A stretch of 64,000 nucleotides of DNA from Bilabrum cf. latius (Eukaryota): assembly GCA_965178125.1 (NCBI GenBank), contig OZ237752.1, positions 310,001 to 374,000 on the forward strand, given 5' to 3'. Below are positions 39,801 through 62,638 of this stretch, piece by piece. The notes under the pieces were generated by a model. It saw nothing but the letters and a program-made list of their open reading frames with translations, was not told the DNA's origin and ran no database searches. Numbering within the stretch: the first letter of the stretch is position 1; each line of letters begins with the position of its first letter. The position numbers were made by a program, and so were the translations under genes.

Positions 39801-40030
39801 CTGAGGCTGGGCTGCATGACGCCTTGCGGCAGGCAAGGGTGACGCTGATCCGCGCGGAGGAGAGCAGGTTAGTGGCGATGACGAGTGTGACGAAGGCTCA
39901 GCAGCAGGAGTACTTGCAACCTGTGGTGCGCTCGGCGGGTGCTGCTTCGGGCGGTGCCAGCCTTGACACCGGGGCAGAAAAGGGCGAGTCGGAGGACGAG
40001 TTTGATGATGATGATGATGATATGGACTGA
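36875..40030 (+). CDS. KU80: Ku80 (NHEJ DNA end-binding subunit), ~1008 aa with low-complexity insertions; exons 36875-37037, 37167-40030
   Basis: vWA N-terminus (EALILAIDVG-Q-SM...QQKI...DSVTIVPFGT|ETQN...DQYQHVTV...NFLDALVV...IMMITDA). Ku core motifs FAGDLDI, AFQFGTDVVPV, VPRHHFMG, ALVRF, QLPCEEDFRDYRF, LVDSMDL, FNPVLHR. C-terminal VGPVDPIGD...AVQCLRAMREVC. GTGAG..CAG intron. In-frame TAGs at 36917, 37250, 37304, 37931, 39290. Ends TGA. Confidence 0.9.
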
Positions 40031-40343: not shown

Positions 40344-41981
40344 ATGGCAGCAGCAGGACCGCCTGGTGGAGGTGCAGGAGGAGAAAAGCCACCTGGGGGA
40401 GGTCTCCCACCGAAGTGCCTCACCAGGCACAAAATTCCGCCGCTTGCAACTGCAAAGCTAGAAACAACGTACGCTGCGGACGGCTAGCCTCTGCAATATC
40501 TGACATGCAACGATGGTGTTACTTTCAGGATTATTAAAACTTTAGCTCCGGCACTTATGGGGAAAGTTAAGCTGTGCTGCCAGTGCTCACCGCAAGAAGA
40601 TGGCACCTTTACGGATACCGAGAACAGATTTGCGGTCAAGATGCTCCTCAAGCACTGCATATAGCGCGGAGTCACAACTGATGGGAGAAAAGTCCAAGAA
40701 GACCCAATGACGGAGGTGAAAGTGCAGGCTTACCTGCAGTCTTAGCGGTGAGTCCATTCGTGTTGCGATCGTGCTTACTTTGAGTCCGTTTTGGTACACC
40801 ATTGCATTCGTTTCATCGACAGGAACTTGAGATAAGGAAACAATTCGCGTCTCTTTCTCTCATGTTGCTTGCGGTTGCTGTTTGCACGCTTTGAACAACT
40901 TTGGTCAGCGGACGCACCGTTCCCAGAAAGCACGTCCGCCGCATCCAAGCCCCCGCACCTCGCACCGATCTTGTCACCGCGCAGAGGAGGGCACAAGAAC
41001 GTGCTTCGATTGCAGCGCGTGTGCGAGGACGAGCACATCATTTACATCATCCTGGAGCTGTGCCCTGGCGGCGACCTCTTCGACAGGGTGCAGCGGGAGC
41101 CCAGCGGCAGGCTCCCAGAGGCAAAGGCAAGGAACTACTTCATCCAGCTGCTTCAGGGCGTCTGCTTCATGCACGGAAGGGGCGTCATCCACAGGGATTT
41201 GTCTCTGGAGAACGCCATGGTGGACGGGAAGGACACGGTCAAGATAATCGATTTCGGGCTCTCTGTGGATAGGTGGTACCAGGCAGCCCCGCCACCGGAC
41301 AAGATGCCTCCAGGGGGCAAGGTAGGCAAGCCATCCTACATGGATCCCGTGATATACTAGAACGGTCCCTACCACCATCACGTCGATCTTTGGTGCATGG
41401 GGGTGATGCTGTTCACGATGCTGTATGGGGTGCCCCCGTACAGGCACCCCAACGCAAGGGCATGCGCATTGTTCAACGAGATATAGAACGGCAGGCTGGG
41501 CGGCCTGCTGACTCGGTGGGGCATGGCCGATTTTGCCTCTCCTGCGGCTCGGGAGCTGGTGATCTCGATGCTGAACCCCGACCCTGCCAAGCGCCCCACG
41601 CTCCCGGACATCCTCCGGAGCCCTTGGATCGCCGAGGATCCCGAGATCAAGAGGATTGGCGGCAGCGTTGTGGCCTCCACACAGGTGGAGCGGGTGCTGC
41701 GAGCTGGTGATGTGATGAATGCCAAGGTGTTTGCGTACAGGCACGGCAGACCCATGCCAGTGGTAGGCAGGCCAGGGCCGGGGGCAGGGGCCAAGGCCAG
41801 GGGCGGTGCGGGCGCTGGCGCTGGCGCGGGTGCGGGTGCGGGTGCGGCACCAATGGATGACGAGGATCCCCCAGGCGGAAGTGGAGGTCCTGCGAGCGGC
41901 GGGGCAGGTGGCGGAGCGGGCGGGGCAGGTGGCGGAGCGGGCGGGGCAGGTGCGGGTGGTTCAGCCGCCATGGAGACATGA
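40344..41981 (+). CDS. Ser/Thr protein kinase, CAMK-like (EDPxxE / HRDLSLEN / GKxxY type), ~466 aa, Gly/Ala tail; exons 40344-40747, 40985-41981
   Basis: Motifs FAVK, EDPMTE, HKNV, GGDLF, HRDLSLEN, DFG, GKPSYMDP, DLWCMGV, DPAKRP. GTGAG..CAG intron in phase 2. In-frame TAGs at 40485, 40662, 40743, 41358, 41484, two of them inside the C-lobe. Ends TGA. Confidence 0.9.
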
Positions 41982-42210: not shown

Positions 42211-43851
42211 TCACGACTCATCCCGCATGACACCCTGTCCCTCGGCCGCCCCATTGCCTTCTGCCGCTGCTGCTCCCGAGCAACTGCTGCCGGACGCTGC
42301 CGACTCATCGCGCATGGGAACACAGCCCTAGTTCATGGGGGCTAGTGCTGGAGCTGGAGCTGGAGCTGGAGCTGGAGCTGGAGCTGGAGCTGGAGCTGGA
42401 GCTGGAGCTGACGCTGGCACTGGTGCTGGCGCTGGTACGCCTGATCCAGCCCCAGCCTTTGCCCCGCCTGTCGCTGCCCCACCAGCGGCAGCTCCTGCAG
42501 CCGTCAGCTCGCTGGCATCTGCACCTGCACCTGCACCTGCACCTGCACCTGCACCTGCACCTGCACCTGCATCTGCATCTGCATCTGCACCTGCACCTGC
42601 AGCTATCCGTGCTCGCAGCCCAGCCACGTGCCAGGCGTGCACCTTGATGTTCTTTGACCTCGCTGTTACCACCACCGACTCTATTGCATTACGAGCCCCT
42701 CTCACACCCATCACCTGCATGGCAGGCTCCCCCATCATAAAGGGGCGTGTCACCATCTCCGCAATGGACGGGCGGTCCTCTGGCCGGGCCCTCGCCACGA
42801 AAAGGCAAAAGTCCTTCGCAGCGTCAGAAAGACCGCTGAATCTCGGCAGCGTCTTGATTGCATCATGCAGCGCAGTCTCACTCAGACTGTACCCATTTTT
42901 GAGCACCCCACCGCACAGGAGACGTACCGCGCACATGCCCAGCGAGTACAGGTCCGCTCGCTCGTCGTACACCTCCCCCCTCGCGACCTCGGGGGCGATG
43001 TAGTTGCCCTTCCCCGCCCAGCCCCGGATGCCATCCGCACCCTTCGGCAACGGACCACCATCGGGCGCCCTCGTCACACCCCTGGGAGGCTGCAACCACC
43101 TGTCCACGGCCTGCCCCGGGTCGATGATGACCCCCTCGCCGTCGTCTGCCAGCACCGAGTTCTCGAGAGACACGTCACGGTGCAGCACTCCCACACAATG
43201 CATGTGGTGCAGCCCCTTCGCCAGGCCATAGAAAGCCTTGCGAGCGGCTGTCTCGGACATGCCATCAAGGGCCAGTGCGACGACATCGGAAGCGGCGTAG
43301 AATGGCATCATGATATAATGGTACTCGTCGTCCTGCCCACTCTCCAGAACGGAGCAAATATTCGGATGCTACCTGTACTCGTGAAATGAAGGCATAAGAG
43401 CTAATAGTTAGGATGTGTGCTACCTGCGCTTGGCTGCTGCACATACCTACGCCATCCACGTCGCTGTTGCTTCGTCTCACCCAGTTTGCCAGCCTGTATG
43501 CACATAATCCAGAATTCGGACCTCATTAATCGGATCCTCCTTCGTAGGCATGCCCTTAGTCGTCCTCTTGGAAGCAATCAGCGAAAGCTTTGAACGCTTG
43601 ACAACGTAGCCTGAGGAATTGCCACCTGCGGCTTGTGGGCAAACCTCGTACACACCGGGCACGTCAGGCTTCTCGAAGCACTCAGCACAATACCATATGT
43701 CACCCATCATCGTCTTGAACAGTCTCTTGACGCGCTGGACTACCTTTTGCCCGTTCACGCACAGTAGCTTGCCCCTTGCAACAAATCTACTGTCACGCCG
43801 TGTACTCTAGAATGCCGTCAGGCAATTTACAACCATTGGTTGCTTTGACAT
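42211..43851 (-). CDS. Divergent Ser/Thr kinase (paralog A; DPG instead of DFG), ~510 aa, with AG/AP-repeat tail; exons 43851-43481, 43372-42211
   Basis: Motifs YVVK, EDPINE, G-Q(TAG)-HPNI, HRDVSLEN, IIDPG, GKGNYIAPE, DLYSLG, EDRP. Intron 43480-43373 has GTGAG, a CTAAC branch point and CAG. TAGs at 43807, 43369, 42328. Ends TGA at 42211-42213. Confidence 0.87.
42346..42601. repeat. Coding hexamer microsatellites (GCTGGA)n and (GCACCT)n encoding AP and AG dipeptide runs in the kinase tail
   Basis: Directly visible at ~42346-42408 and ~42518-42601. Confidence 0.9.
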
Positions 43852-44181: not shown

Positions 44182-47100
44182 TTAAAAATGTAAAGCGCTC
44201 TCCAGCAGTGCCTCCAACTGCGAGCACGGCCGCCCAGCGGATCGCAGCTGGGACAGCAGATCGGTCCCGGGTACTGCAGTACCCACCGCGCCCTCGGGGG
44301 GATGCATGGCCAGCGAGGCAACCAGGGAGACAGCAGCACAGGCAGCGCCATGCCCTGCAGATCCCATGCGCACCTCCCACGCCTCCACCAGCACCCTCAC
44401 GCACTCATCATGGCCCCCGAGCACGGCCGCCATCAGCGGACCGCTCAACCAGCCCGAGTGACCAGGCCCCGGGACATCCAACACTGCCGCTGCCACTGCC
44501 ACCGGGCCACGAACCTCCATCCCACCCGCCAGCTTGCCCAGCCTCAGCCGCTTGGCCAGCTCCAGCGGCCTGCCCTCCTTGGCAGCTCGGTGCACCATGG
44601 CAGCATCTCGTTTGGCCTCCACGGCCCTCCTCCACCGGGCCAAAGGCAGGATCCTCGGGTCAATAAACTCCCGGATGAGCTTGGCCGTGGCTGTCTTGCC
44701 CCTGCAGTCTGCTTCCTCTGCTGGGGTGCGTCCGTCCTGCGGCAGTAAGTGACAGCACATAATACGTTCAGAGGTATGTCAGCAAGCTGATCTGTCGAAT
44801 CAATCCCAAAACAACCCATCTCACCTTGTTCTTGACCGTCCTGCTGGCTCCGGCCCGCAGCAGAGCGAGAGCCGCGGCATCCCTGCCACTGAAGGCGGCT
44901 TGATGGAGAGGGGTGCCCCTGTACTGCGGAATCAAGTAGCCAAAGATATCCATTATCATCTCAGGGCGAATGCCAACCCACAATCATGTTCAAGGTCCGC
45001 AGGAGAGGCGGCGAGGAGCAGCTAGATTGACGTGGATCTATCGATTTCCCGGTTCCTAGAAAAGCGTGGCGTGCTCCGACCTGATCGCGAGCGCAGCCAC
45101 CCAATAGCATGATGGGCCTGGGCGACGAGCACAATACTTGGAGCAAGAAACTGCTTCGGCTATGGACTCAGTTGATTCACTATCTCGATTTTGCACACAG
45201 GCCCGCTGATTCCGATGGCATAAATCTCATCGTTTAGCTCCTCCTACATCATGAACTGCCTCAGCTCCCAAGACACAAGCGCTCATCGACCCCCGCACGA
45301 CCAGGCCGCACCCTTCCCATGCGAAGTCACAGAAGGAACACCGACTCCCATGCATCCAATCATCCCATCTATTTCATACATCACATCAACTCACCTAGCC
45401 GTCAGCGTTCACATTGGCCCCCGCTGCAACCAGCACACCCACCAAGTCGGCGTAGCCCTCTCTGGCTGCCCAGCCCAGGGGGGTGTACTGGCCCTGTGAG
45501 GAAGGAAAGTGAGGGACGTTACGGGATGTGATGGGATGCCAATGGAAGGCAACAAGGGAAAACAGCGAATCGAAGTCAGAAACAGAGCATCGACGCCACG
45601 CAATCCACCCATGGACGGGCCTCGGGCCCCCACAGAATCCGCTGCACCCGCTCGCCCCAGCACCAAGCCGGCACTGGCACCATTCCAGCATATCCACCCC
45701 AAGTCACAAATACAACCGCACAAACAGAACACTAGACTATCCACCCATCTATCCAGGACTGCGGCAAGGCCGCCCGGCGGTCATGGTCGCAAGTTAGGCG
45801 AAGCGCAGTCGGCTGAAGGCGGTAGATCGCGACTGTGAGATTGTGTGCAACTTGCACCCGTAAGACGCAGCTCCATAAGATGACTCAACATCTGGTTGGA
45901 TCGCCTTCTTCTTCGCCCTGCATCCCGAGCTATCCCGGGCTCCAAGTCACAAGCGCTTCTCACGACCACCTCACGACCAGGCCGCACCCTTCCCATGCGA
46001 AGTCACAGGGAACACCAACTCCCATGAATCCAATCATCCCAGCCATACATACATCGCAACAACTCACTTTGCCTTCAGCGTTCACATTGGCCCCCGCTGC
46101 CACAAGCGCACGCACCACGTCGGCATGGCCCTCACTGGCTGCCCAGCCCAGGGGGGTGTCCTTGCGCTGTGAGGAAGGAAAGCGAGGGGCGGCCAAAACA
46201 GGTGAATGGGAAGAGATGGCAATAGGAAGCAACACGGGAAAACAGCGAACTGAAGTCAGAAACAGAGCCTCGACGCCGCGCAACCCAACCACGGACTGGC
46301 CTTTGGCCCCCGCACGTTCCGCTGTTCTCACTCGCCCCAGCACCAAGCCGACACTGGCACCATTCCAGCATATCCACCCCAAGTCACAAATACAACCGCA
46401 CAAACAAAACACCAGACTATCCACCCATCCATCCAAGACTGCGGCAAGGCCGCCCGGCGGGCATGGTCGCAAGTTAGGCGAAGCGCAGTCGGCTGAAGGC
46501 GGTAGATCGCGACTGTTGGATTGTGTGCAACTTGCACCCGTAAGACGCAGCTCCATAAGATGACTCAACATCTGCTTGAATTGCCTTCCTGTTCCGCTTG
46601 CATCCCGAGCTATCCCGGCTCCAAGGCACAAGCGCTCCTCGGCCACCTCACAAACACTCACATAGCCCTCAGCATCAACATTGGCCCCCGCTGCCACAAG
46701 CGCAGCCACCACGTCGGCATTGGCTGCCCTGTGCAGCGGGGTGTCCTTGCTCTGCGAGGAAGGAAAGCGAGGGACGGCCAAGGGGGGTATGAAGGGATGG
46801 CAATGAAAGGCCAACAAGGGAAAGCCGCGAACTGAAGTTAGAAACAGAGCATCGGCGCCGCGCAATCCACCCATGGACGGGCCTCTGGCCCCCACAGGTT
46901 CCGCTTCTCCCACACGACACAGCATCAAGCCAGCACTGGCACCATTCCAGCATATCCATCCCAAGTCCCAAGTACGATCGCCCAACCAAATCACAAGACA
47001 CCCCATGCAGCCATCCAGGACTGCGGCGAGGCCGCCAAGCGGTCATGGTCGCAAACAAGGCGTTACGCAGTCGGCTGATGGCAATCGACCGAGACTGTTG

Positions 47101-50100
47101 GATTGTGTGCAACTTGTGCCCATCCAGCAAAGCTTCATGCGCGGATTCATCATCTGGTTGGATCGCCTTCTGGCTCCTCCTGCATCCCAAGCTATCCCGG
47201 CTCCAAGCCACGAGCGCTCATCGACCACCTCGCGACCAGGCCGCACCCTTCCCATGCCGAGTCACAGGGAACACTAACTCCCATGCATCCAACCATCCCA
47301 GCCACATACACACTTCACGGCAACTCACTTTATTCTCAGCATTCACATTGGCCCCTGCTGCCACAAGCGCACCCACCACGTCGGCATGGCCCTCACTGGC
47401 TGCTGCATGAAGCGGGGTATGCTTGTACTATGAGGAAGGAAAGCGAGGGACGGCAAGAAGGAATGCGAAAGCATGGCAACGGAAAGGCAAAGAGGGGGGG
47501 GGGAAGCAGCGAACGGAAGTTAGTGCCATAGCATCGGCGCCGCGCAATCCACCCATGGACGGGCCACGGGCCCCCACAGGCCCCGCTGCACCCACTCGCC
47601 CAAACACCAAGCCGGCACTGGCACCATTCACGCATATCCACCCCAAGTCCCATAATCAAATACACAACCAAATCGCCAAACCATCCAGACATCCATCCAA
47701 GACTGCGGCAAGGTCGCCGGCGGTCTTGGCCCCAAGCCGGGCGAAGTGCAGTCCACTGATGGCAATCGATCGAGACTGTTGGATTGTGTGCAACTTGTGC
47801 CCAGCAGACGCAGCTCAATACGAGGACTCATCATCTAGTTGGATCGCATTCTGGCTCCTCCTGCATCCCAAGCTATCCCGGCTCCAAGCCACAAGCGCTC
47901 ATCGACCACCTCACAACCAGGCCGCACCCTTCCCATGCCGAGTCACAGGGAACACTAACTCCCGTGCATCCAACCATCCCAGCCACATACACACTTCACG
48001 ACAACTCACTTTGTTCTCAGCATCAACATTGGCCCCCGCTGCCACAAGCGCAGCCACCACGTCGGCGTGGCCACATCTGGCTGCAACAAAGAGCGGTGTG
48101 GGCTTGTCCTGTGAGGAAGGAAAGCGAGGGACGGCGACGGAAGGCAGAAAAGGGGTAGCAATGAAAAGGCAAAGAGGGGAAGCAGGGAAGGAAAGCCAGT
48201 ACCAGAGCATCGGCGCCGCGCAATCCACCCATGGACGGGCCTCTGGCCCCCACAGGTTCCGCTTCTCCCACACGACACAGCATCAAGCCGGCACTGGCAC
48301 CATTCACGCATATCCACCCCAAGTCCCATAATCAAATACACAACCAAATCGCCAAACCATCCAGACATCCATCCAAGACTGCGGCAAGGTCGCCCGGCGG
48401 TCTTGGCCCCAAGCCGGGCGAAGCGCAGTCCACTGATGGCAATCGATCGAGACTGTAGGATTGTGTGCAACTTGTGCCCAGCAGACGCAGCTCGATACGA
48501 GGACTCATCATCTAGTTGGATCGCATTCTGGCTCCTCCTGCATCCCAAGCTATCCCGGCTCCATGACACTAGCGCTCATCGACCACCTGCGACCAGTCCG
48601 CACCCTTCCCATGCCGAGTCACAGGGAACACCAACTCCCATGCATCCAATCATCCCATCTACACATACACACTTCACGGCAACTCACTTTGTTCTCAGCA
48701 TCAACATTGGCCCCTGCTGCCACAAGCGCACCCACCACGTCGGCGTGGCCCTTTTCGGCTGCCCTGTGCAGCGGGGTGTACTAGTCCTGGTAGGAAACAA
48801 AGTGAGGGGCGCCCAAAGGGAATTCAAAGAGATGGCAATAGAAAGGTAAAAAAAGGGGGGGGGGGGGGGGGCAGCGAACGGAAGGTACTACCAGAGCATC
48901 GGCGCCGCGCAATCCACCCATGGACGGGCCTCCGCCCCCCACAGGTTCCGCTGCACCCACACGCCCAATCACCAAGCCGGCACTGGCACCATTCACGCAT
49001 ATCCACCCCAAGTCCCAAATACACAACCAAATTACCAGACCACCCAGACATCCATCCATCCAAGACTGCAGTTTGGCCGCCCGGCGGTCATGGTCGCAAG
49101 TAGGCGAACCCCAGTCGGCTAAAACGGCGATAGATCGAGACTGTTGGATTGTGTGCAACTTGTGCCCAGCAGACGCAGCTCGACAAGAGGATTCATCATC
49201 TAGTTGGATCGCATTCTTCTTCGCCCTGCATCCCGAGCTATCCCGGCTTCCAAGACACAAGCGCTCATCGACCACCTCACGGCCTGGCCGCACCCTTCCC
49301 ATGCTGAGTCACAGAGAACACTAACTCCCATGCATCCAATCATCCCATCTATGCATCCATGCATACATCACGGCAACTCACTTTGTTCTCAGCATCAACA
49401 TTGGCCCCGGCTGCCACAAGCGCAGCCACCACGTCGGCGTGGCCCTTTTCGGCGGCCCAGCCAAGCGGGGTATCCTTGTACTGTGAGGAAGGAAAGCGAG
49501 GGACGGCCAAAACAGGTGAATAGGAAGGAAAGGCAATGAAAAGGCCAAAAGGAGGAACAGCGAACGGGATGTAGAACCAGAGCATCGGCGCCGCGCAATC
49601 CACCCATGGACTAGCCTCGGGCCACTGGCCCCATTCCAGCATATTTACCTCAGTCCCGAATTATACTCCACGACCAAATCACCAGACACTTCATACAGCC
49701 ATCCATCCAAGACTGCGGCAAGGCCGCCCGGCGGTCATGGTCGCAAGTTAGGCGAAGCACAGTCGGCTAAAACGGCGATAGACCGCAACTTTTAGATTAT
49801 GTGCATAGTACCCCCAGCAGACGCAGCTCGATACGAGGACTCATCATCTGGCTAGATCGCCTTTTGGTTCCTCCTGCATCCCAAGCTATCCCGGCTCCAT
49901 GACACTAGCGCTCATCGACCACCTCACAACCAGGCCGCACCCTTCCCATGCCGAGTCACAGGGAACACCAACTCCCATGCATCCAATCATCCCATCTATG
50001 CATACATCACAGCAACTCACTTTGTTCTCAGCATTCACATTGGCCCCCCCTGCCACTAGCGCACCCACCACGTCGGCGTGGCCCTTTTCGGATGCAAAGT

Positions 50101-53100
50101 GCAGCGGGGTGCTCTCGACCTATAAGGAAGGAAAGCGAAGGACGGCCAAAACAGGTGAATGGGAAGGGATGGCAGTGGAAGGCAACAAAGAGGGGGGGGG
50201 GGGGCAGCGAACGGAAGGTACTACCAGAGCATCGGCGCCGCGCAATCCACCCATGGACGGGCCTCCGCCCCCCACAGGTTCCGCTGCACCCACACTTCCA
50301 ATCACCAAGCCGGCACTGGCACCATTCACGCATATCCACCCCAAGTCCCAAATACACAACCAAATTACCAGACCACCCAGACATCCATCCATCCAAGACT
50401 GCGGCAAGGCCGCCCGGCGGTCATGGTCGCAAGTAGGCGAACCCCAGTCGGCTAAAACGGCGATAGATCGAGACTGTTGGATTGTGTGCAACTTGTGCCC
50501 AGCAGACGCAGCTCGACAAGAGGATTCATCATCTAGTTGGATCGCCTTTTGGTTCCTCCTGCATCCCGAGCTATCCCGGCTCCAAGCCACAAGCGCTCAT
50601 CGACCACCTCACGGCCTGGCCGCACCCTTCCCATGCCGAGTCACAGGGAACACTAACTCCCATGCATCCAATCATCACAGCCATACATCCATCACGGCAA
50701 CTCACTTTGTTCTCAGCATCAACATTGGCCCCGGCTGCCACAAGCGCAGCCACCACGTCGGCGTGGCCCTTTTCGGCGGCCCAGCCAAGCGGGGTATCCT
50801 TGTACTGTGAGGAAGGAAAGCGAGGGACGGCAAGAAGGGAATGTGAAGGCCAAACATGAAGCAGCAAATGGAAGTCAGAACCAGAGCATCGGCGCCGCGC
50901 AATCCACCCATGGACGGGCCTCTGGCCCCCACAGGTTCCGCTGCACCCACTCGCACCAGCATCAAGCCGGCACTGGCACCATTCCAGCATATCCACCCCA
51001 AGTCCCATATACAATAACTAAAATACACAATCCTATCGGCGACCAGACCATCGGCGTTCATGATCGCAAGCTGGGCGAAGTGCAGTCCGCTGAAGGCAAT
51101 CGATCGAGACTGTGAGATTGTGTGCAACTTGCACCCAGCAGACGCAGCTCGACAAGAGGACTCATCATCTGGTTGGATCGCCTTCTTCTTCCGCCTGTAT
51201 CCCGAGCTATCCCGGCTCCCAAGACACAAGCGCTCCTCGACCACCTCACGACCAGGCCGCACTCTTCCCATGCCGAGTCACAGGGAACACCAACTCCCAT
51301 GCATCCAATCATTCCAGCCATTAATGCATCACATCATCTCACCCAGCCCACGGCATTCACATCGGCCCCCGCCGCCACAAGCACACCCACCACGTCGGCA
51401 TTGGCTGCCAAGTGCATCGGTGTGCGGTTGTACTGTGAGGAAGGAAAGCGAGGGACGGCAAGAAGGGAATGTGAAGGCCAAACATGAAGCAGCAAATGGA
51501 AATCAGAACCAGAGCATCGGCACCGCGCAATCCACCCATGGACGAGCCTCTGGCCCCCACAGGTTCCGCTGCACCCACTCGCACCAGCATCAAGCCGTCA
51601 CTGGCACCATTCCAGCATACCCACCCCAAGTCCCATATACAATTACAAATACACAATCCTATCGGCGACCAGACCATCGGCGGTCATGGTCGCAAGCTGG
51701 GCGAGGCGCAGTCGGTTGAAGGCGGTAGATCACGACTGTTGCATTGTGTGCGTGCATTATGCGCCCAGTAGACGCAGATCGATCAGCGGGCTCCGCATCT
51801 GGTTATATCGCCTTCTTCTTCCGCCTGTATCCCGACCTATCCCGGCTCCCAAGACACAAGCGCTCCTCGACCACCTCACGACCAGGCCGCACCCTTCCCA
51901 TGCCGAGTCACAGGGAACACCAACTCCCATGCATCCAATCATTCCAGCCATTAATGCATCACATCAACTCACCTAGTCCTTAGCATTCACATTGGCCCCC
52001 GCTGCCACAAGAGCAGCCACCACGTTGGCATTGGCAGCCCTGTGCAGCGGGGTGCTCGCGCCCTATAAGGAAAAAAAGCGGAGGACGGCAAAGGGTGGAC
52101 GAGAAGAGATGGCAATGGGAAAACAAATAGCCAAAGCAGTGAGCAGAAGGTAGCACCAGAGCATCGGCGCCGTGCAATCCACCCAAGGACGAGACTCGGG
52201 CCTCCACAGGTTCCGCTGCACCCACTCGCCCAAACACCAAGCCGACACTGGCACCATTCCAGCATATCCACCCCAAGTCACAAATACAACCGCACAAACA
52301 AAACACTAGACTATCCACCCAGCTATCCAGGACTGCGGCAAGGCCGCCCGGCGGTCATGGTCGCAAGTTAGGCGAAGCGCAGTCGGCTCGAGGCAATCGA
52401 TCGAGACTGTGCAACTTGCACCCAGCAGACGCAGCTCGACGAGAGGATTCATCATCTGGTTGGATCGCATTCTGGTTCCGCCTGCATCCCGAGCTATCCC
52501 GGCTCCAAGCCACAAGCGCTTCTCACGACCACCTCACGGCCAGGCCACACCATTCCCATGCCGAGTCACAGAAGGAACACCAACTCCCATGCATCCAATC
52601 ATCCCACCTGAACGATATACATCGCAGCAGCTCACCTCATTCACAGCGTTTGCATCCGCCCCCGCTGCCACAAGCGCACCCACCACGTCGGCGTGGCCCT
52701 TTTCGGCTGCCAAGTGCAAAGGGGTGTGACAATCCTGTAAGTAAGCAAAGCGAGGGACGGTCGAAGATATAGCAATGGAAAGGCTAAATGGGAGGCGGGG
52801 GGTGGGAGGGAGCTGAAGGTAGTACCAGAGCATCGGCGCCGCGCAATCTACCCATGGGCAGGCCTCGGGCCCCCACACGTTCCGCTGTTCCCACTCGCCC
52901 AATCACCAAGCCGGCACTGGCACCATTCCCGCATATCCACCACAATCCCGAATTATACTCCACGACCAAATCACCAGACACTTCATACAGCCATCCATCC
53001 AAGACTGCGGCAAGGCCGCGCGGCGGGCATGGTCGCAAGTTAGGCGAAGCGCAGTCGGCTGAAGGCGGTAGGACGCGACTGTTGGATTGTGTGCATAATG

Positions 53101-55891
53101 CGCCCTGCAGACGCAGCTCAACTCGATGATTCAGCATCTGGATGAATCTCCTTCTAGTTCCGCCTGCATCCCGAGCTATCCCGGCTCCCAAGACACAAGC
53201 GCTTCTCACGACCAGGCCACAACCTCCCAATGCCAAGTCACAAGATACATTGACTCCCATGCATCCTATCATCCCAGCCATATATACATTACATAATCTC
53301 ACCCAGTCCTCAGCATTCACATTGGCCCCCGCTGCCACAAGCGCACCCACCACGTCTGCATTGGCTGCCAAGTGCAGCGGGGTGCGCTCGTCCTGTGAGG
53401 AAGGAAAGCGAGAGACGGCAAGAAGGAATGACAAGGGATGGCAATATGAATTCAACAAGGGAAAGCAGCGAACGCAAGTCAGAACCCTAGCATCGGCGTA
53501 GGTCAATCCACCCATGGACGGGCCTCTCGCCCCCACAGAATCCGCTGCACCCACATGCCCCAGCACCAAGCCGGCACTGGCACCATTCCAGCATATCCAC
53601 CCCCAGTCCCATAAACAAATACACGACCTAATCCCTTGACCATCCGTCCAGCCATCCATCCAGGACTATGGCAAGACCCACCGGCCGTCATGCTCGCAAG
53701 CGGGGCGAAGCGCAGTCGGCTGAAGGCGGTAGATCGCGACTACAGATTGTGTCTATAATGCGCCCAGCAGACGCAGCTTGATGACAGGACTCATCATCTG
53801 GTTGGATCGCCGTCTTCTTCCGCCTGCATCCCGACCTATCCCGGCTCCCAAGACACAAGCGCTCCTCGACCACCTCACGGCCAGGCCGCACCATTCCCAT
53901 GCCGAGTCACAGAAGGAACACCAACTCCCATGCATCCAACCATCCCATCCATATACACATCATATCAACTCACCTTGTCTTCAGCATTCACATTGGCCCC
54001 CGCTGCCACAAGCGCACCCACCACATCGGCGTTGCCCTTTTCGGCTGCCACGTGCAGCGGTGTGTTCTTGTCCTGTGAGGAAGGAAAGCGAGGGAAGGCA
54101 AGAGGGTTGGGAAGTGATGGCAATGGAAGGCCAACAAGGCGAAGCAGCGAAGGCGAGTGGGAACCAGAGCATCGGAGCCGCGCAATCCACCCATGGACGG
54201 GCCTCTGGCCCCCACAGGTTCCGCTCCACCCACTCGCCCCAGCACCAAGCCGGCACTGGCACCATTCCAGCATATCCACTCCCAGTACCAAATACGATCG
54301 CACGACCAAATCATCAGACCATCCGTCCATCCGGGACTGCGGCAAGGCCGCCCGGCGGCCATGGTCCCAAGCTAGGCGAAGCGCCGCGGCAGTCGGCTGA
54401 AGGCGGTAGCTCGCAAATGTTGGATTCTGTGCATAGTGCGCCAAGCGGACGCAGCTCGATACGAGAACTCAGCGTCTGGTTAGATCGCCTTCTGGTTCCA
54501 CTTCACATCCCGACCTATCCCGGCTCCAAGACGCCCTTCCGTTTTGGTGCCCCTGGAAGCAGCCCTGGCCCAATGCACGCTGTCACACCCACTCAAGTCC
54601 GATTGGATGCGGCTGAGTACATATGTACAGCTAGTTAGAGGGATGTACTACTGCTGCACGATATCGATGAGCATAGCCTATGCTTCCCGCTGGCATCCAG
54701 CATCGGGGTGTTCGCAAGCCTGCTAGCCAGCCGTGGCAGCCTCATTCTGCCGGCGGGCGAAAGGAAGAGCTTGCTTGCGGTCCAAGTGCAATGCAATCAG
54801 CTCCAGAGACATTTCACCGGCCCCGTCTGCTTGTTGTCAGTATGGCACAACCCAATGCCCCCATGCTCCACAGCGCAGCCGCGCCGATCGAATGTCTCAT
54901 GGAGATGAAAGCAATTCACGGCCCAGTGAAGAGATCCACTCCAGTCATACACGAACAAAACGTCAAACACTGCCCGTCTGCTACCTGCAACCTATTGGTG
55001 CAGAAATCATTGCCAAGTATCCCACTACGCCGGAAGGAGGATTCCTCGCTCAAAGACACACCCCGCTGCATGAACCAGCTTAGTACCCACACGAAACGTG
55101 AGACAATACAAACTAGGGGCACACCACGAGCAGGTACCATGCATCCAAAACCATGTTAGAACCGATCTAGTTGCCCGTGATGGGCCTTTGAAGAGTGCTT
55201 TCACGTCGCCAAGAAGAAGAAGAAAGGCAACGACATTTGGAGCAAGATTCGCATCCGTGATAGACATGATTCACATATTCTGTGTAGGGACTCACGTCAT
55301 TTTGGGCATCGACTGCTCCCCCAGCCTCCACCAGCGGCACGATGCACGAGTTGTGTCCGTTGTGGCTCGCCCAATGCAGCGGGGTCCATTCCTGGCTGCC
55401 ACGAGGGCCCTGCGATCCTAGCAACGGCGCACACTTAAATATGACTATAGAACATGAACGCCGTAGCTTGTGGTTGGGCCAGTGGAGGGAAATAGCCAGG
55501 CACTCCAGATTGGTGGCGAAAAGTGACCAACGGCACGGCAATCCGTGATTCTGGCCGATATCAACACCCATATTTGCCAGTTAAAATGTGTGCACACTCA
55601 CGTCTCCTGTCACGTTCGCACTCGTCCCAGATGCCAGCGCAGACTGCAGGGCCTCCAAATGGCCGTTCTTGGCCGCTTCAAGAAGAGCAGCTGACCTGCA
55701 GAAGGTGTGAATTGCCATACATACCATTTCGCTTACTTCAATGTGAAGCGGAAACTGCAATTATCCTACACATTCGGAACACAGCTATCGAGCAATCCAG
55801 ACACCAAGTACACACGAATCGAGTCATAAATGCGTGCCCTTACTATCCATCAAGGAGACGATATGCATGGAACATTACAGAGTACTTACAT
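44182..55891 (-). CDS. Ankyrin-repeat protein (~731 aa, 19 exons, one ankyrin repeat per exon)
   Basis: Exons (-): 55891-55890 (AT), 55695-55602 (N-cap SAALLEAAKNGHLEAL), 55391-55296, 54072-53974, 53392-53303, 52734-52636, 52062-51973, 51432-51343, 50804-50706, 50119-50021, 49480-49382, 48786-48688, 48108-48010, 47427-47329, 46751-46662, 46166-46068, 45493-45395, 44923-44825, 44736-44182. Repeat exons are bounded by YAG and GTGAG, phase 0, with TPLxxAAxxGHADVV..LVAAGANV motifs. TAGs at 51973, 48781, 45395. Ends TAA. Confidence 0.85.
45260..54535. repeat. Tandem array of 14 exon+intron cassettes (~590-690 bp each) with homologous introns
   Basis: Recurring intron blocks (GCGCCGCGCAATCCACCCATGGACGGGCC, CCAAGCCGGCACTGGCACCATTC, GACTGCGGCAAGGCCGCCCGGCGG, CATCCCGAGCTATCCCGGCTCC) surround each 90/99-bp ankyrin exon. 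Confidence 0.95.
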
Positions 55892-56269
55892 GGTCCAAGG
55901 ATGCTGGCGAATGCGCCGTTGTTGTCGGCTAGTTTGAAGGGAAGTATCAGAAATCAGAAATAATTATCGGTTTAATTTTAGTTCTCGAATGAAGCAAAGC
56001 TCCACAGGACGACTGTTCTCTCTCTCAAGAGACAGCCTCAACAAGAAACTAGCGTAGATCTCTAAAAAAAAAACTAGCGAGTTGATCCATTCCGACTGGC
56101 GCCGCGCACATGCCAACAACGGAACGACCAGGAAGGACGGTCGCACGTCACGCACGATACGTGTTTGCAATCTGGAATCCGGGGCCAGGAATCCCGGGAC
56201 TCGGGCCCACCGCCCATGGCAAGCTGTTGTCTTTACCCCTAAACGTTTCAGGCCAAATACACTCATCAG

Positions 56270-57019: not shown

Positions 57020-57191
57020 TTAGCAGGTCTGGGGTTACAATCAGTAAGACCGGAACTGTAGAAACTGGGATTGATTTGCGTGAAGGCCGACTCATCTTCC
57101 CGAGGGTACGCCGAAGATACTGATCTCGGCAGTGCTCAAGAAGACACGTACTACAATGTAGTGTAGTTCTGAGTCAGCTTGCAAAAGTTTT
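57020..57191 (+). repeat. Split direct repeat A1 (left terminus)
   Basis: Matches 62792-62963 by eye (TTAGCAGGTCTGGGG...GCAAAAGTTTT). Confidence 0.95.
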
Positions 57192-57501
57192 AAAAGTTTT
57201 CGAGAGGCCTATCGGCTGGCTCCAAGGGCAATCGGGATGTGTTCGTCTCAGGTTGATCCCTATAAGGAAAAAGTAAACATAACCCATGTCAAACGCACGC
57301 TGGTATATGCACTTATTGCATAGTTGCTGCCAAAGGTCTGCTGCGAGTGCATTTCACCCGGCACTGCTTCATAACGCACACGGCACGTCAAGGCACAACA
57401 CTGCGCAACTCGACTTATGCTTGTATTGCATCCCAAAAACCATAGCAATGCCGCTAGTGAATCGTAAATCAAGATTATCATTAACATTGTGTCGCAAACG
57501 G

Positions 57502-60026
57502 GGCCTGCCACTGGCCACCTTGCTGCTGTGGGCAGCTTGGCGAGCCTGGGTGGGTTGCTGCGCGTCGTCCATTTGACGTCCGCTTGCTTTGTCTGTGATG
57601 GCGCCTTGATGCGCCTGCCACTGGCCACCTTGCTGCTGTGGGCAGCTTGGCGAGCCTGGGTGGGTTGCTGCGCGTTGTCCATTTGACGTCCGCTAGCCTT
57701 TGTCTGTGATGGCGCCTTGATGCGCCTGCCGCTGGCCGCCTTGCTGCTGTGGGCAGCTTGGCGAGCCTGGGTGGGTTGCTGCGCGTCGTCCATTTGACGT
57801 CCGCTTGCTTCTTCTTTGATGGCGCCTTGATGCGCCTGCCACTGGCCGCCTTTGCTGCTGTGGGCAGCTTGGCGAGCCTGGGTGGGTTGCTGCGCGTCGT
57901 CCACTTGACGTCCGCTTGCCTTTGTCTGTGATGGCGCCTTGATGCGCCTGCCACTGGCCACCTTGCTGCTGTGGGCAGCTTGGCGAGCCTGGGTGGGTTG
58001 CTGCGCGTCGTCCATTTGACGTCCGCTTGCCTTTGTCTGTGATGGCGCCTTGATGCGCCTGCCACTGGCCGCCTTGCTGCTGTGGGCAGCTTGGCGAGCC
58101 TGGGTGGGTTGCTGCGCGTCGTCCACTTGACGTCCGCTTGCCTTTGTCTGTGATGGCGCCTTGATGCGCCTGCCGCTGGCCGCCTTGCTGCTGTGGGCAG
58201 CTTGGCGAGCCTGGGTGGGTTGCTGCGCGTCGTCCACTTGACGTCCGCTTGCCTTTGTCTGTGATGGCGCCTTGATGCGCCTGCCACTGGCCACCTTGCT
58301 GCTGTGGGCAGCTTGGCGAGCCTGGGTGGGTTGCTGCGCGTCGTCCATTTGACGTCCGCTTGCCTTTGTCTGTGATGGCGCCTTGATGCGCCTGCCACTG
58401 GCCGCCTTTGCTGCTGTGGGCAGCTTGGCGAGCCTGGGTGGGTTGCTGCGCGTCGTCCATTTGACGTCCGCTTGCCTTTGTCTATGATGGCGCCTTGATG
58501 CGCCTGCCACTGGCCGCCTTTGCTGCTATGGGCAGCTTGGCGAGCCTGGGTGGGTTGCTGCGCGTCGTCCATTTGACGTCCGCTTGCCTTTGTCTTTGAT
58601 GGCGCCTTGATGCGCCTGCCACTGGCCGCCTTTGCTGCTGTGGGCAGCTTGGCGAGCCTGGGTGGGTTGCTGCGCGTCGTCCATTTGGCGTCCGCTTGCC
58701 TTTGTCTGTGATGGCGCCTTGATGCGCCTGCCACTGGCCGCCTTTGCTGCTGTGGGCAGCTTGGCGAGCCTGGGTGGGTTGCTGCGCGTCGTCCATTTGA
58801 CGTCCGCTTGCCTTTGTCTGTGATGGCGCCTTGATGCGCCTGCCATTGGCCACCTTGCTGCTGTGGGCAGCTTGGCGAGCCTGGGTGGGTTGCTGCGCGT
58901 CGTCCATATGACGTCCGCTTGCCTTTGTCTGTGATGGCGCCTGACTGCGCCTGCCACTGGCCGCCTTTGCTGCTGTGGGCAGCTTGGCGAGCCTGGGTGG
59001 GTTGCTGCGCATCGTCCATTTGACGTCCGCTTGCCTTTGTCTGTGATGGCGCCTGAATGCGCCTGCCACTGGACGCCTTCGCTGCTGTGCGCAGCTTGGC
59101 GAGCCTGGGTGGGTTGCTGCGCGTCGTCCATTTGACGTCCGCTTGCCTTTGTCTGTGATGGCGCCTTGATGTGCCTGCCACTGGCCGCCTTTGCTGCTGT
59201 GCGCAGCTTGGCGAGCCTGGGTGGGTTGCTGCGCGTCGTCCATTTGACGTCCGCTTGCCTTTGTCTGTGATGGCGCCTTGAAGCGTCTGCCATTGGCCAC
59301 CTTGCTGCTGTGCGCAGCTTGGCGAGCCTGGGTGGGTTGCTGCGCGTCGTCCATTTGACGTCCGCTAGCCTTTTTCTGTGATGGCGCCTTGATGCGCCTG
59401 CCACTGGCCGCCTTTGCTGCTGTGCGCAGCTTGGCGAGCCTGGGTGGGTTGCTGCGCGTCGTCCATTTGACGTCCGCTAGCCTTTTTCTGTGATGGCGCC
59501 TTGATGCGCCTGCCACTGGCCGCCTTTGCTGCTGTGGGCAGCTTGGCGAGCCTGGGTGGGTTGCTGCGCGTCGTCCATTTGACGTCCGCTTGCTTTGTCT
59601 GTGATGGCGCCTTGATGCGCCTGCCACTGGCCGCCTTTGCTGCTGTGGGCAGCTTGGCGAGCCTGGGTGGGTTGCTGCGCGTCGTCCATTTGACGTCCGC
59701 TAGCCTTTGTCTGTGATGGCGCCTTGATGCGCCTGCCACTGGACGCCTTCGCTGCTGTGGGCAGCTTGGCGAGCCTGGGTGGGTTGCTGCGCGTCGTCCA
59801 TTTGACGTCCGCTTGCTTTTGTCTGTGATGGCGCCTTGATGCGCCTGCCACTGGCCGCCTTTGCTGCTGTGGGCAGCTTGGCGAGCCTGGGTGGGTTGCT
59901 GCGCGTCGTCCATTTGACGTCCGCTTGCCTTTGTCTATGATGGCGCCTTGATGCGCCTGCCACTGGCCGCCTTTGCTGCTGTGGGCAGCTTGGCGAGCCT
60001 GGGTGGGTTGCTGCGCGTCGTCCATT
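57502..60026. repeat. Tandem array, 110-112-bp unit, ~22-23 copies, inside the element
   Basis: Unit GCGCCTTGATGCGCCTGCCACTGGCCGCC...GACGTCCGCTTGCCTTTGTCTGTGATG; starts at 57601, 57712, 57822, 57934 and onward. Unit length is not fixed at 3n. Confidence 0.96.
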
Positions 60027-60065
60027 GGATAACTTAAGGTTGTGTTACGATGCTCAACCGCGACA

Positions 60066-60408
60066 TCACTAGCCGCCAAGGAGGAGATGACCACCCCCAA
60101 GGCAGCCTGTGTGAGCAATTGCACCATATGCACCATGAAACAGCTCGACCAGAAGGTCTTGTCATAGCGACAGCACTAGCTGCCAAGGAGGAGATGACCA
60201 CCCCCAAGGCAGCCTGTGTGAGCAATTGCACCATATGCACCATGAAACAGCTCGACCAGGATGTCTTGTCATAGCGACAGCACTAGCTGCCAAGGAGGAG
60301 ATGACCATCCCCAATGCAGCCTGTGTGAGCAATTGCACCATATGCACCATGAAACAGCTCGACCAGGAGGTCTTGTCATAGCGACAGCACTGGCGGCCAA
60401 GGAGGAGA
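60066..60408. repeat. 107-bp tandem array, left block (~3 copies)
   Basis: Unit GCCAAGGAGGAGATGACCACCCCCAAGGCAGCCTGTGTGAGCAATTGCACCATATGCACC...GACAGCACTAGCT. Confidence 0.93.
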
Positions 60409-61225
60409 ACATCTACTAGCGGCGCGACGACAGCACCCCCAGCGCGAGGCGCAGAAGGGCCAGGTCACAGGGCAGCCGCGGTAGTAGGAAGCAGCACGAA
60501 CATCAGCACCGACGTAGCAGCAGCAAGGCGGCAGAGTGCCTCCGACGTTCGCACTAGAAGGAGAGGTCCGACTAGGTCACGGCGAAGGGGGACTCATACT
60601 GCCTGTCAAATCCACGGGACCATCCCTTGATGCTAGAGTTAGCCTTGGGGGGACCCGGGAGGAGGCTTCGAGGAATTAGTCGTCCGCTGTAAAGCAGGCC
60701 ACCCAGGAGCGAACTCTCGTAGCCCGTCAGGGAGCCAGAGCAGAGCACACCGAGAGGGCTATTGTGGAGCAACGTGGCGGCATGAACTCGCAGAGCAGCG
60801 CACTGAGGAGCATGCAAGTGCACAGTGGGGACAAACTGTATTGGATGCAGCCAGCTACATTCTCAATCTGCACCACGCAGTGTTGTCCGGTGGCGGAGGT
60901 GTTGCACGTCTTACGCAAGTATGGCGCGCCTTTCCACTGGTACCTCGAGCCTGACGCAGCGATCAAGGCTCCACGAGACGGTGGGGACGCCGACTGGCAC
61001 GAAGGTACCTCAACGCAATCAGCCCTGTTTACTGAGATTCGCAAGCAGGTTGAGGCAGGATTCATTCGAGTTACATCGACACCAGCAACATCAGATATGC
61101 CGAGAGCCTTGCTGGTCCGGAAGTACGCTTGGAAGCTCAGCCCCGGCGTGGGCATGCAGCGACGCATAGTACCAAGTGAATAGGCCAGGATCGTCGTGGA
61201 TTTCTCGGGACTACGACCACATGCA
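60401..61225 (+). pseudogene. Truncated reverse-transcriptase N-terminal fragment
   Basis: Frame is open under TAG=Q (TAGs at 60482, 60485, 60515, 60677, 61181). ALFTEIRKQVEAGFIR...PRALLVRK...Q-ARIVVDFSGL resembles early RT motifs (E...GxI; P..lVxK; RxxxDxxxL). Cut off before YxDD. Confidence 0.62.
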
Positions 61226-62135: not shown

Positions 62136-62638
62136 AGGGACGCAGCTCGACAACAGAGTTTTGTAAGTTCCGGATGAACAGCACTAGCAACGACAGGACA
62201 AAATGAGCAGCACCATATGCACCATTTGTAAGCTAGACTGGGAGGTCCTGTCGAATGGATAGCACTAACAACGACGAAAGCGATGATCACTCCCGCAGCA
62301 ACCTGTGTACTTGAATGCATCTTAGGCACCAGTATTAAGCTCGGCGAGGATTTCGTATATAATTGACATCTCTGGTTGCGATCAACGACTAGGCTCATCG
62401 GTGGTACGGTGAATGCTGCAGATCAGCCACCATAACCTGACAGTTCAACACAACAGTCGATGCAAGTGGCTCCACGGTCGTCACCACCGACAGATGACTA
62501 CCACTAGTGGCAAGCAAAGCGGACAGCAGCCATCGTGGCGACTATATCCAAGGAGCGGATTAATGTGACCCACAGGTCAGTATGCGTAGGGCGGCAAGCC
62601 GCAGTGGCCACAGGTGGCCAAATCTGCGGGTCAGTACG

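Follow-up and report, generated by a model that had tools for sequence, protein, structure and literature searches.

A fourteen-cassette ankyrin exon array with a variable binding face and a shared constant C-terminal module in Bilabrum cf. latius: a candidate recognition gene family

Repeat diversification in recognition proteins has precedent as an evolutionary regime (accessible parts of PMC3341825 and PMC4986451). In particular, the brown-algal ROCO-LRR and NB-ARC-TPR arrays, as portrayed in the accessible text of PMC3341825 and PMC11378527, have one repeat per exon in equal-length, same-phase exons, vary in repeat number between paralogues, are diversified on the concave face, and have a proposed immune role in a stramenopile host. 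The fungal NLR ankyrin repeats of high internal conservation (Podospora; accessible part of PMC4986451) are near-identical, recombine with one another, vary in number, and show selection on the inner helix and β-hairpin, and Dscam exon clusters (accessible part of PMC11378527) consist of tandem duplicated exons that encode variable binding modules. DARPin and ANK-N5C libraries (PMC8683736; PMC4308713) place self-compatible internal repeats with a fixed framework between an N-cap and a C-cap.

Our analysis of a window of 64,000 nucleotides from Bilabrum cf. latius (contig OZ237752.1) reveals a long ankyrin protein gene on the minus strand, gene A, which, either itself or through its family, resembles all of these systems in the features named, with repeat number varying here between paralogues; the preliminary description had already likened its exon design to that of the brown-algal arrays. 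As far as the accessible text of the brown-algal papers goes, gene A differs from those arrays in that its repeat is ankyrin, it lacks a ROC-COR or NB-ARC domain, its introns are homologous over their whole length, it has no inactivated or inverted intronic cassettes (192 kb) and no skip among the joints listed, and its C-terminal constant module ties together hundreds of genes with differing sensors. Within the same limit for PMC4986451, it differs from fungal NLRs in lacking NACHT, NB-ARC, and N-terminal effector domains, in having its constant part at the C terminus, and in giving each repeat its own exon, with a homologous intron of ~570 nt. The non-cassette coding exons match only ankyrin in Pfam, with no ROC-COR, NB-ARC, or NACHT domain; having no NTPase domain, gene A therefore belongs to neither the brown-algal ROCO/NB-ARC class nor the fungal NLR class. 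From the combined analyses, we consider that gene A probably encodes a variable-sensor/constant-module recognition protein, with 14 recombining cassettes, binding-face variation, and a shared module, whose task is to sense rapidly changing foreign proteins inside the cell.

Every part of gene A between its start and stop codons is assigned (positions are those of the window; all features are on the minus strand). The first exon (55890-56016; 5′ end provisional), identified from the sequence and from an RNA-like contig piece of run X9 (55888-56016), contains the 5′ UTR and the AT of the start codon, which an intron separates from its G (AT|G). N-cap exon 1 (55602-55695; joint 55408-55601 in three runs), read from the sequence, encodes a degenerate ankyrin repeat, and N-cap exon 2 (55296-55409; Pfam Ank, E 5e-7; joints on both sides) encodes an ankyrin repeat. 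Repeat homology then defines a tandem array of ~660-bp units (45237-54532), in agreement with the extent given in the preliminary description; each unit comprises the 3′ part of an intron, an exon, and the 5′ part of the next intron, so that the unit boundary is intronic. On the C-terminal side, a constant ankyrin exon (44825-44923; Pfam Ank; joints in three runs) is followed by the last exon (44182-44736; sequence and joint 44735-44824), which has 184 codons plus TAA and comprises a half-repeat cap, the constant module (44371-44664; sequence, structure model, and genome searches), and a gene-A-type tail. Behind the C-cap proposed earlier lies a constant module common to hundreds of genes. A fusion of gene A with the downstream kinase is ruled out, as the last exon stops at TAA (44182). 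Kinase genes are interleaved with gene A and two of its paralogues (B and C) on contig C18, and a mobile-element-like insertion adjoins gene A.

The array contains all of the 14 phase-0 one-repeat exons previously claimed (99 nt in ten cases, 90 nt in the other four), running from 54072 to 45395, each in phase 0-0 and bounded as AG|exon|GT. Specifically, exon structure places cassette 1 at 53974-54072, cassette 2 at 53303-53392 (90 nt, the 3-codon deletion class), cassette 3 at 52636-52734, cassette 4 at 51973-52062 (90 nt; three runs show its joint with cassette 5), cassette 5 at 51343-51432 (90 nt), cassette 6 at 50706-50804, cassette 7 at 50021-50119, cassette 8 at 49382-49480, cassette 9 at 48688-48786, cassette 10 at 48010-48108, cassette 11 at 47329-47427, cassette 12 at 46662-46751 (90 nt), cassette 13 at 46068-46166, and cassette 14 at 45395-45493 (joints on both sides), with 99 nt wherever no length is given. 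Cassettes 1, 5, and 10-13 are also represented in RNA-like contigs, and cassette 6, placed additionally by joint analysis, is identical to cassette 8. Pfam Ank matched both cassette exons tested (cassettes 2 and 8; E 8e-8 and 3e-8) and both constant ankyrin exons tested. The variable exon positions are those first reported (1-3, 7-8, 11-12, 14, and 31-33); the framework, described as fixed, is largely conserved, with minor variation at positions 19, 27, and 29.

Three cassettes contain an in-frame TAG (cassettes 4 and 14 in the last codon, cassette 9 in codon 2). Premature stops in these cassettes are ruled out, because TAG is a sense codon in this organism. One frame of 8,813 codons contains 27 TAG and no TAA or TGA; the two conserved TAG sites in it align to Gln, one in 51 of 52 homologues and one in 42 of 49, while the remaining 25 gave no information; the nearest named homologue is from Cafeteria. 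These alignments predict that UAG specifies Gln in the nuclear code of Bilabrum cf. latius, a bicosoecid-like flagellate. Such a code would explain how standard annotation misses or truncates genes of this kind. We found no stramenopile UAG reassignment in the literature, with most subscription journals outside our coverage.

To follow splicing, we treated runs X7-X9 (two studies) as RNA-like, because GT-AG introns are skipped in them; the run records do not label any run as RNA. At least 10 of the 18 introns of gene A are seen as CT..AC joints in these runs, and none in the DNA-like run X5. Among the joints listed (15 of 36), gene A cassettes are joined neighbour to neighbour in order (6 of the 13 cassette-cassette joints, in three RNA-like runs; the other 7 fall outside those listed), and the main product is therefore predicted to be one 737-residue protein. 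Gene A differs in this respect from Dscam, as described in the accessible part of PMC11378527: its transcripts join adjacent cassettes instead of using one per mRNA. The preliminary description had envisaged combinatorial output by exon skipping, and diversity arising mainly through alternative splicing, by skipping or by mutually exclusive cassettes as in Ectocarpus ROCO genes, is a distinctly unlikely alternative. Every cassette could be skipped in frame, the splice sites are near-uniform, splice variants are reported for the ROCO LRR exons of Ectocarpus (accessible part of PMC11378527), and contigs drop rare isoforms; but the six neighbour-to-neighbour joints exclude strict mutual exclusion, and there is no unambiguous cassette skip among the 15 of 36 joints listed. 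One joint in run X8 reads as cassette 6 to cassette 10; because cassettes 6, 8, and 9 have the same last 27 nt and the short side is only 28 nt, it is equally an ordinary 9-10 joint. Similarly, the 5-6 joint is indistinguishable from 5-8, and 10 of 10 distinct joints tested that had letters between the joined pieces are consecutive junctions of paralogues B-E. The best reading is diversification at the DNA level rather than by splicing combinatorics. Mismatching letters in the contig mapping were left out as polymorphism, as paralogues map at the 92% threshold.

The search with the array intron suggested in the preliminary description revealed four paralogous arrays (genes B-E) that share it, giving 45 cassettes in arrays of 14, 7, 10, 8, and 6, of which 44 are distinct; two further arrays, on C12 (17 exons) and C32 (18 exons), have unrelated introns. 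An assembly artefact is ruled out by the distinctness of these 44 cassettes, by RNA joints that follow assembly order, and by run X5, which shows 0 differences from the assembly in all 8 listed pieces. All five genes are transcribed and spliced (RNA-like contigs), and all 45 cassettes are open, have 99 or 90 nt in phase 0-0, and have intact splice sites (donors all GTRAG-type, 40 of them GTGAGT; acceptors ending in AG, 37 of them CACAG). The gene A introns are homologous, as claimed (pairwise distance 0.07-0.235, mean 0.18). The pairwise homoplasy index (PHI) gives p = 0.001, the floor of 1000 permutations, for the introns of genes A, C, and D and for all 40 introns, and p = 0.0005 within the cassette exons; in the AU test, each intron half (5′ and 3′) rejects the tree of the other (p 2e-5 and 3e-96). 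The introns and exons are thus recombinant mosaics, within and between the five paralogous genes. The idea that cassettes duplicate and exchange therefore stands, except that exchange also occurs inside exons, where a single 9-nt deletion turns up in cassettes of different genes beside differing binding-face dipeptides, and is not of whole cassettes alone. Since each unit is one phase-0 repeat of 33 or 30 codons, gain, loss, or exchange of units preserves the frame, as the preliminary description foresaw; the splice joint lies inside the β-hairpin, and every hairpin therefore draws its first part from one cassette's end and its second from the following cassette's start. We envisage that units would be gained, lost, or exchanged over generations by unequal crossing-over and gene conversion, with the homologous introns as homology arms.

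Assembly of the cassettes in cells by programmed somatic rearrangement or targeted hypermutation (VLR-like or DGR-like) is very improbable. Many variable codons do have the form NNC or NAG; but there is no adenine-specific excess in introns or silent sites (intron π: A 0.20, G 0.19, T 0.19, C 0.26; silent framework A sites 0.09-0.17), the variable sites include ones with C, G, or T as majority base, and gene A lacks the adenine-specific substitution of diversity-generating retroelements. Moreover, an nhmmer search of 192 kb around genes A-E gave 46 matches, all on known exons, with no orphan donor, decayed, or inverted cassette; the intron occurs in the genome search only at the five genes and in one exon-less fragment (G000:C26:747135-747405); and run X5 equals the assembly in its 8 listed pieces.

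Site diversity and omega across the 45 cassettes concentrate the variation on the ankyrin binding face, as first proposed. For six exon positions that we take to be the DARPin binding-site set, π at codon positions 1+2 is 0.53 (0.47 in gene A), about 2.5-fold the intron value of 0.21 (0.18 in gene A), compared with 0.14 (0.18) at four-fold framework sites and 0.07 (0.06) at framework codon positions 1+2; none of 100,000 random 12-site intron samples reached the binding-site π. Omega for this set is 3.1 (p 5e-5), compared with 0.50 for the framework. The six randomised positions of PMC4308713 give π 0.55, an entropy exact p of 1e-5, and omega 2.3 (p 0.0015). The per-site dN/dS check thus gives omega 2.3-3.1 over all cassettes, a tree-based measure that recombination can inflate, while in gene A alone binding-site omega is not significantly above 1 (1.8, p 0.28; 1.3, p 0.62). 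We infer diversifying selection on the binding-face codons. A selectively unimportant tandem expansion, in which folding keeps the framework, the surface drifts, and conversion homogenises the introns so as to mimic selection, is improbable. It accords with the result for gene A alone, with the general variability of ankyrin surface positions (accessible part of PMC4308713), and with silent divergence that is also high in the variable codons (pS 0.39-0.57, compared with 0.23-0.26 elsewhere); together with conversion perhaps depressing intron diversity, the latter means that the contrast may be partly non-selective. Nonetheless, within the same units, nonsynonymous sites are 2.5-3.7 times as diverse as introns and four-fold sites, no copy is decayed or inverted in the 192 kb, all five genes are expressed, and the pattern recurs in two independent arrays, C12 (binding-site 0.45, intron 0.15) and C32 (0.42, 0.15; four-fold sites, n = 6, 0.25), among loci picked by module or ankyrin matches and not at random.

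The last exon carries what is new at this locus: a constant module of ~90 residues (which we label the WRRA module), present genome-wide behind ankyrin, LRR, and other domains and without a named homologue among our searches. There are ~370 copies in the genome (all 150 scored among 426 candidates match; the core motif gives 408 matches, compared with 38 for the control), located behind ankyrin exons, intronless ankyrin, LRR_6, and unannotated domains, and, in outside matches, behind DUF285 and ankyrin. The module is itself ankyrin-derived, with a long helix and two ankyrin-like helix pairs with a hairpin. The folds listed in structure searches are ankyrin ones (best FEM1B, Z 8.8, rmsd 2.7, 100 aligned), and in the model of an intronless paralogue (pLDDT 95.6), 47 of the 50 structural matches listed end at residue 211 or earlier, ahead of the module, suggesting that the module is separate from the stacked repeats. 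VIA-align, PDB sequence, Pfam, and Atlas searches gave only ankyrin matches and no named family; Foldseek against PDB and viral libraries gave no module match at E ≤ 0.001, which is not proof of a new fold; 10 outside proteins and 10 further matches included no named or taxon-assigned module-bearing homologue; and the literature, with most subscription journals outside our coverage, yielded no WRRA-type module and no ankyrin exon array in a protist.

ASB proteins (ankyrin + SOCS box), ankyrin + F-box proteins, and KRAB zinc fingers form families of hundreds of paralogues whose interchangeable repeat sensors carry a small constant module; in them, F-box, SOCS-box, and KRAB domains couple varied sensors to one common downstream partner. 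The gene A family has the same layout, although its module, being ankyrin-derived and matching no named family, differs from those of the F-box and SOCS-box families. An internal role, as KRAB-zinc-finger-like or ubiquitin-adaptor-like constant-module adaptors for the cell's own proteins or those of resident mobile elements, is unlikely. It would fit this layout, the insertion adjoining gene A, the kinase genes among genes A-C, and ASB9 with Elongin BC, one of the 50 structural rows, whose alignment runs beyond the stacked repeats as far as residue 248 (rmsd 3.5). However, none of 57 module sequences matches an F-box or SOCS-box in Pfam at E ≤ 5 (filters drop weak matches), and an exon-wise search of the genome, a weak one, showed a single Skp1-type match and no Skp1-family expansion, leaving the E3-adaptor version without support; in addition, no kinase match occurs in the stretches examined at genes D and E, and stable self targets would leave repeated binding-face diversification unexplained.

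The recognition-protein reading would run as follows: selection diversifies the binding face on a conserved framework, targets are bound by the variable repeats and are likely proteins of viruses or other invaders of the flagellate, and whatever the sensor (ankyrin, LRR, or other), the constant module links it to one common downstream partner. More tentatively, this UAG = Gln flagellate may possess an undescribed intracellular immune repertoire of ~370 genes without an NLR-type NTPase, in which interchangeable sensors sit on one new effector or docking module and the exon arrays act as a natural DARPin library recombining via introns against giant viruses, virophages, and other invaders; the cassettes would then be independent expansions, at least three times, alongside sensors that are intronless ankyrin arrays, LRRs, and others. 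To our knowledge, virus recognition by unicellular heterotrophs is largely open, and the locus offers candidates, namely a large family of genes that bear the evolutionary signature typical of recognition proteins, and the small, foldable module that they share. It broadens the exon-cassette design of receptors, as in brown-algal LRR/TPR proteins, to include ankyrin repeats that lack an NTPase, a design that arose repeatedly in one genome.

The locus also provides a naturally selected counterpart of DARPin libraries, with the positions and residues varied by evolution. Gene A varies like DARPin and ANK-N5C libraries at consensus positions 2, 3, 5, 10, 13, 14, and 33; in contrast to DARPin libraries, its family is natural, has up to 18 internal repeats, varies also at positions 1, 4, 9, and 16, is diversified via recombination between exon units, and includes 30-residue deletion repeats. 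The underlying 9-nt deletion, always followed by AAT, is present in 10 cassettes from four of the genes, and these cassettes carry 7 different dipeptides at positions 7-8.

Our analysis of gene A, the ankyrin gene on the minus strand of the window, reveals that the 14 phase-0 one-repeat exons and the homologous introns around them, as proposed in the preliminary description, are both present. In particular, the cassettes (one-repeat ankyrin exons c1–c14, running from 54072 to 45395) are phase-0 exons with AG before and GT after each of them (14/14), are 99 nt (ten) or 90 nt (four) long, and, for the two tested, match Pfam Ank with E values of 8e-8 and 3e-8. The 13 internal introns are homologous, with a mean distance of 0.18. 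The first array intron contains only the 3′ ~460 nt of the unit and the last only the 5′ ~160 nt, indicating that the repeated unit comprises an intron half, an exon, and an intron half, the array of units spanning 45237–54532. A product of 737 residues is predicted. Its start codon is split by an intron and is followed by two N-cap exons, the 14 cassettes, a single constant ankyrin exon, and a last exon of 184 codons.

Nine public sequencing runs contain part of the window, none of them recorded as RNA; of ten listed runs, four were compared with it: X7, X8, and X9 (from two studies, guessed to be RNA) and X5 (other). The predicted introns are skipped exactly in X7–X9; X5 has no joints and covers the introns, with no differences in 8 of the 8 listed pieces. 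The joint analysis rests on 15 listed of 36 joints. Ten of the 15 connect consecutive gene A exons, covering 10 of the 18 gene A introns and including 6 of the 13 cassette–cassette joints and joints at two TAG codons. Four others match exactly consecutive junctions of the paralogues B–E, as do all 10 distinct 'letters between' strings (12 rows of 24), the exact matches extending over 13–48 nt. These gene A joints and B–E junction matches establish that genes A–E are all expressed and that neighbouring cassettes are spliced together, excluding strict mutual exclusion; the cassette array is a real, expressed feature. The remaining listed joint reads c6–c10 with a short side of 28 nt; c6, c8, and c9 are identical over their last 27 nt, and the joint is equally explained by c9–c10. 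The c5–c6 joint is indistinguishable from c5–c8. A combinatorial output through exon skipping, as first envisaged, is not borne out among the 15 listed of 36 joints, contigs dropping rare forms. Rare skipping could escape for that reason, but with 6 of 13 cassette–cassette joints running neighbour to neighbour, and the sole apparent skip open to a second explanation, we regard alternative splicing as a quite unlikely driver of cassette diversity.

The cassette unit is present at five genes in the genome: gene A (14 cassettes) and, directly upstream of it on contig C18, genes B and C (7 and 10 cassettes); gene D (8 cassettes) on C26; and gene E (6 cassettes) on C40. An intron-only search of the genome yielded one further place, an exon-less cassette-intron fragment just upstream of gene D (G000:C26:747135-747405). 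Across the five genes, 44 of 45 cassettes are distinct and all 45 are open with intact splice sites; no decayed or inverted cassettes were found in the 192 kb searched. On C18, related protein-kinase genes (window 42211–43407, minus strand, and G000:C18:374106, 386584, and 398752) alternate with genes A, B, and C, the kinase and ankyrin-gene block being repeated in tandem; no such kinase was found in the stretches around genes D and E.

The PHI test rejects clonal descent for the introns of A, C, and D and for all 40 introns (p 0.001, the lowest value attainable; B and E entered only within the set of 40), and also inside cassette exons (p 0.0005). Trees of the 5′ and 3′ intron halves reject each other, and nearest neighbours change gene along a single intron; for example, the first quarter of gene A intron Ai12 lies 0.02 from gene C intron Ci7. 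Ten cassettes from four genes share a 9-nt deletion that AAT always follows, and seven different dipeptides immediately precede it, which points to exchange inside exons. The longest exact tract is 142 nt within a gene versus 68 nt between genes, so units of one gene have exchanged sequence more recently, or more often, than units of different genes.

With the six DARPin positions (2, 3, 5, 13, 14, and 33) as the binding set, codon positions 1+2 have a diversity of 0.53 for the 45 cassettes and 0.47 for gene A. The corresponding values are 0.21 and 0.18 for introns (where conversion may lower diversity), 0.14 and 0.18 for four-fold framework sites, and 0.07 and 0.06 for framework codon positions 1+2. 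A second set of randomised ankyrin positions (2, 3, 5, 10, 13, and 33), taken from PMC4308713, gives a diversity of 0.55 and an entropy exact p of 1e-5. On a fixed tree, with a codon model having TAG as Gln, omega is 3.1 (p 5e-5) for the first set, 2.3 (p 0.0015) for the second, and 0.50 for the framework, such estimates being inflated by recombination. For gene A alone, omega is 1.8 and 1.3, neither significant. Also to be weighed against selection, silent divergence is raised within the variable codons. The proposed concentration of variation on the binding surface thus holds as excess diversity, in gene A as in all 45 cassettes, and as omega above 1 over all cassettes, but not as a significant omega in gene A alone.

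Two further long arrays of single-ankyrin exons, with 17 exons (G000:C12:774064-782970) and 18 + 5 exons (G000:C32:296978-311558), have their own homologous introns, unlike those of A–E and unlike each other. Binding-position diversity is 0.45 in the C12 array and 0.42 in the 18-exon C32 array, versus 0.15. These unrelated introns, with the same diversity contrast, indicate that the cassette design expanded at least three times. They also count against drift as the explanation of the array, a reading that we consider quite unlikely even though the gene A omega, the raised silent divergence, and a possible lowering of intron diversity by conversion would all fit it. Somatic programming of cassettes is more improbable still, no adenine-specific excess having been found in array diversity. 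In the alignment, the splice joint lies inside the beta-hairpin, after consensus position 2 and before position 3, so that reordering of units would be expected to make new hairpins as well.

The last exon of gene A contains a constant C-terminal segment of ~90 residues (the WRRA module), which the C12 and C32 arrays share. Of 426 genome candidates for this exon, 150 were scored and all 150 match, and the six-codon core motif has 408 genome matches versus 38 for the control, representing about 370 genes. In 40 stretches (397 kb) chosen for module matches, 57 modules were counted. Of these, 33 have one or more single-ankyrin phase-0 exons upstream and 12 have at least four; others lie behind ankyrin arrays without introns, behind LRR_6 repeats, or behind unannotated domains. 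Intronless ankyrin arrays ending in the module (G000:C13:626000-632000, C13:669600-671700, and C4:512000-517500) are built from 66-residue doublets that closely resemble one another and vary at the binding positions, and LRR (RNI-like) proteins carry or end in the module at G000:C36:358462-361419 and G000:C10:159000-190000, the C10 copies lying in tandem at about 5-kb spacing. A sampled region, G000:C14:326001-630000, is densely packed with short genes, dozens in number, that combine 1–6 single-ankyrin exons with the module and each differ at binding-face positions.

Searching 1.84 billion representatives with a profile gave 580 matches; the best 150 include many ordinary ankyrin proteins, the rest being single module-spanning matches. 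Among 47 outside matches scanned for families, DUF285 was found in two and an ankyrin match of some kind in ten, the remainder matching no family; names were found for none of the 10 module-bearing outside proteins looked up. The fold of the gene A last exon is predicted with a pLDDT of 70.6, and that of an intronless module-bearing paralogue with 95.6, the module there being modelled as a 28-residue helix, a further helix, a hairpin, and two paired helices. Structural matches to the last-exon model are ankyrin folds with middling Z, and 47 of 50 matches to the paralogue model stop before the module. By these predictions, the module is ankyrin-derived and set apart from the sensor stack; its sequences mark it as strongly conserved and of an unnamed family.

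The gene A array shares its working principle with the ROCO-LRR and NB-ARC-TPR exon arrays of Ectocarpus (PMC3341825, PMC11378527) and with fungal NLRs, whose ankyrin repeats are conserved (PMC4986451), and has the protein layout of DARPins (PMC8683736); repeat expansion through exon duplication is likewise already known (PMC1553488, PMC5100051). Gene A has neither an NTPase domain nor inactivated intronic exons and therefore belongs to neither of the two natural families. No description of the ankyrin array or the module was found in the literature searched, which was largely open-access. A family of several hundred members with an unnamed module raises the significance of the array.

Frame-neutral units, recombinant mosaics, an excess of binding-face diversity, in-order splicing among the listed joints, and a common module are established. 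We infer that unequal crossing-over and conversion use the homologous introns as recombination arms, that new binding surfaces are retained by selection, and that the module couples varied sensors to one pathway. The targets may be foreign proteins, for example those of giant viruses and virophages, which are known from Cafeteria. This joint reading is, in our judgement, rather probable. An internal adaptor role in place of foreign-protein sensing is unlikely, as no F-box or SOCS-box match was found in the 57 module sequences.

Three gene A cassettes contain an in-frame TAG. The first 26.4 kb of the window (1–26442, plus strand) make up a single 8,813-codon frame that includes 27 TAG but neither TAA nor TGA and encodes a giant IPT/TIG protein; two of the TAG sites occupy conserved columns, where Gln is the aligned residue (51/52 and 42/49 homologues), the remaining 25 being uninformative for the assignment. 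A putative CUA-anticodon tRNA gene is located at G000:C23:907607-907679 (69.8 bits), and the stop codons of the genes are TAA or TGA. Among named homologue clusters, the best for the giant protein is Cafeteria roenbergensis (55% identity), which makes a bicosoecid-like stramenopile the probable host; its nuclear code would read UAG as Gln and stop at TAA and TGA. No description of this code in such a stramenopile was found in the literature searched; PMC11687900 names UAG-only-to-Gln codes for ciliates and Iotanema and does not mention stramenopiles. Within the window, the giant protein opens with near-identical 891-bp tandem coding repeats (1–3860, plus strand), which extend upstream beyond the window.

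Neighbouring features in the window include a 1,307-codon frame (30246–34169, plus strand; TAG as Gln) that has hydrophobic stretches and lacks Pfam matches, as well as three ordinary genes: a GFO/IDH/MocA oxidoreductase (35430–36575, minus strand), a Ku80-like gene (36876–40030, plus strand), and a second protein kinase (40513–41981, plus strand). A 6.65-kb insertion (57020–63671) interrupts a kinase gene, has split direct repeats (57020–57191 = 62792–62963 and 62639–62791 = 63519–63671, both 100%), and holds tandem arrays of 112 bp (22.6 copies) and 107 bp, a layout that we take to be reminiscent of Ngaro-type retroelements.
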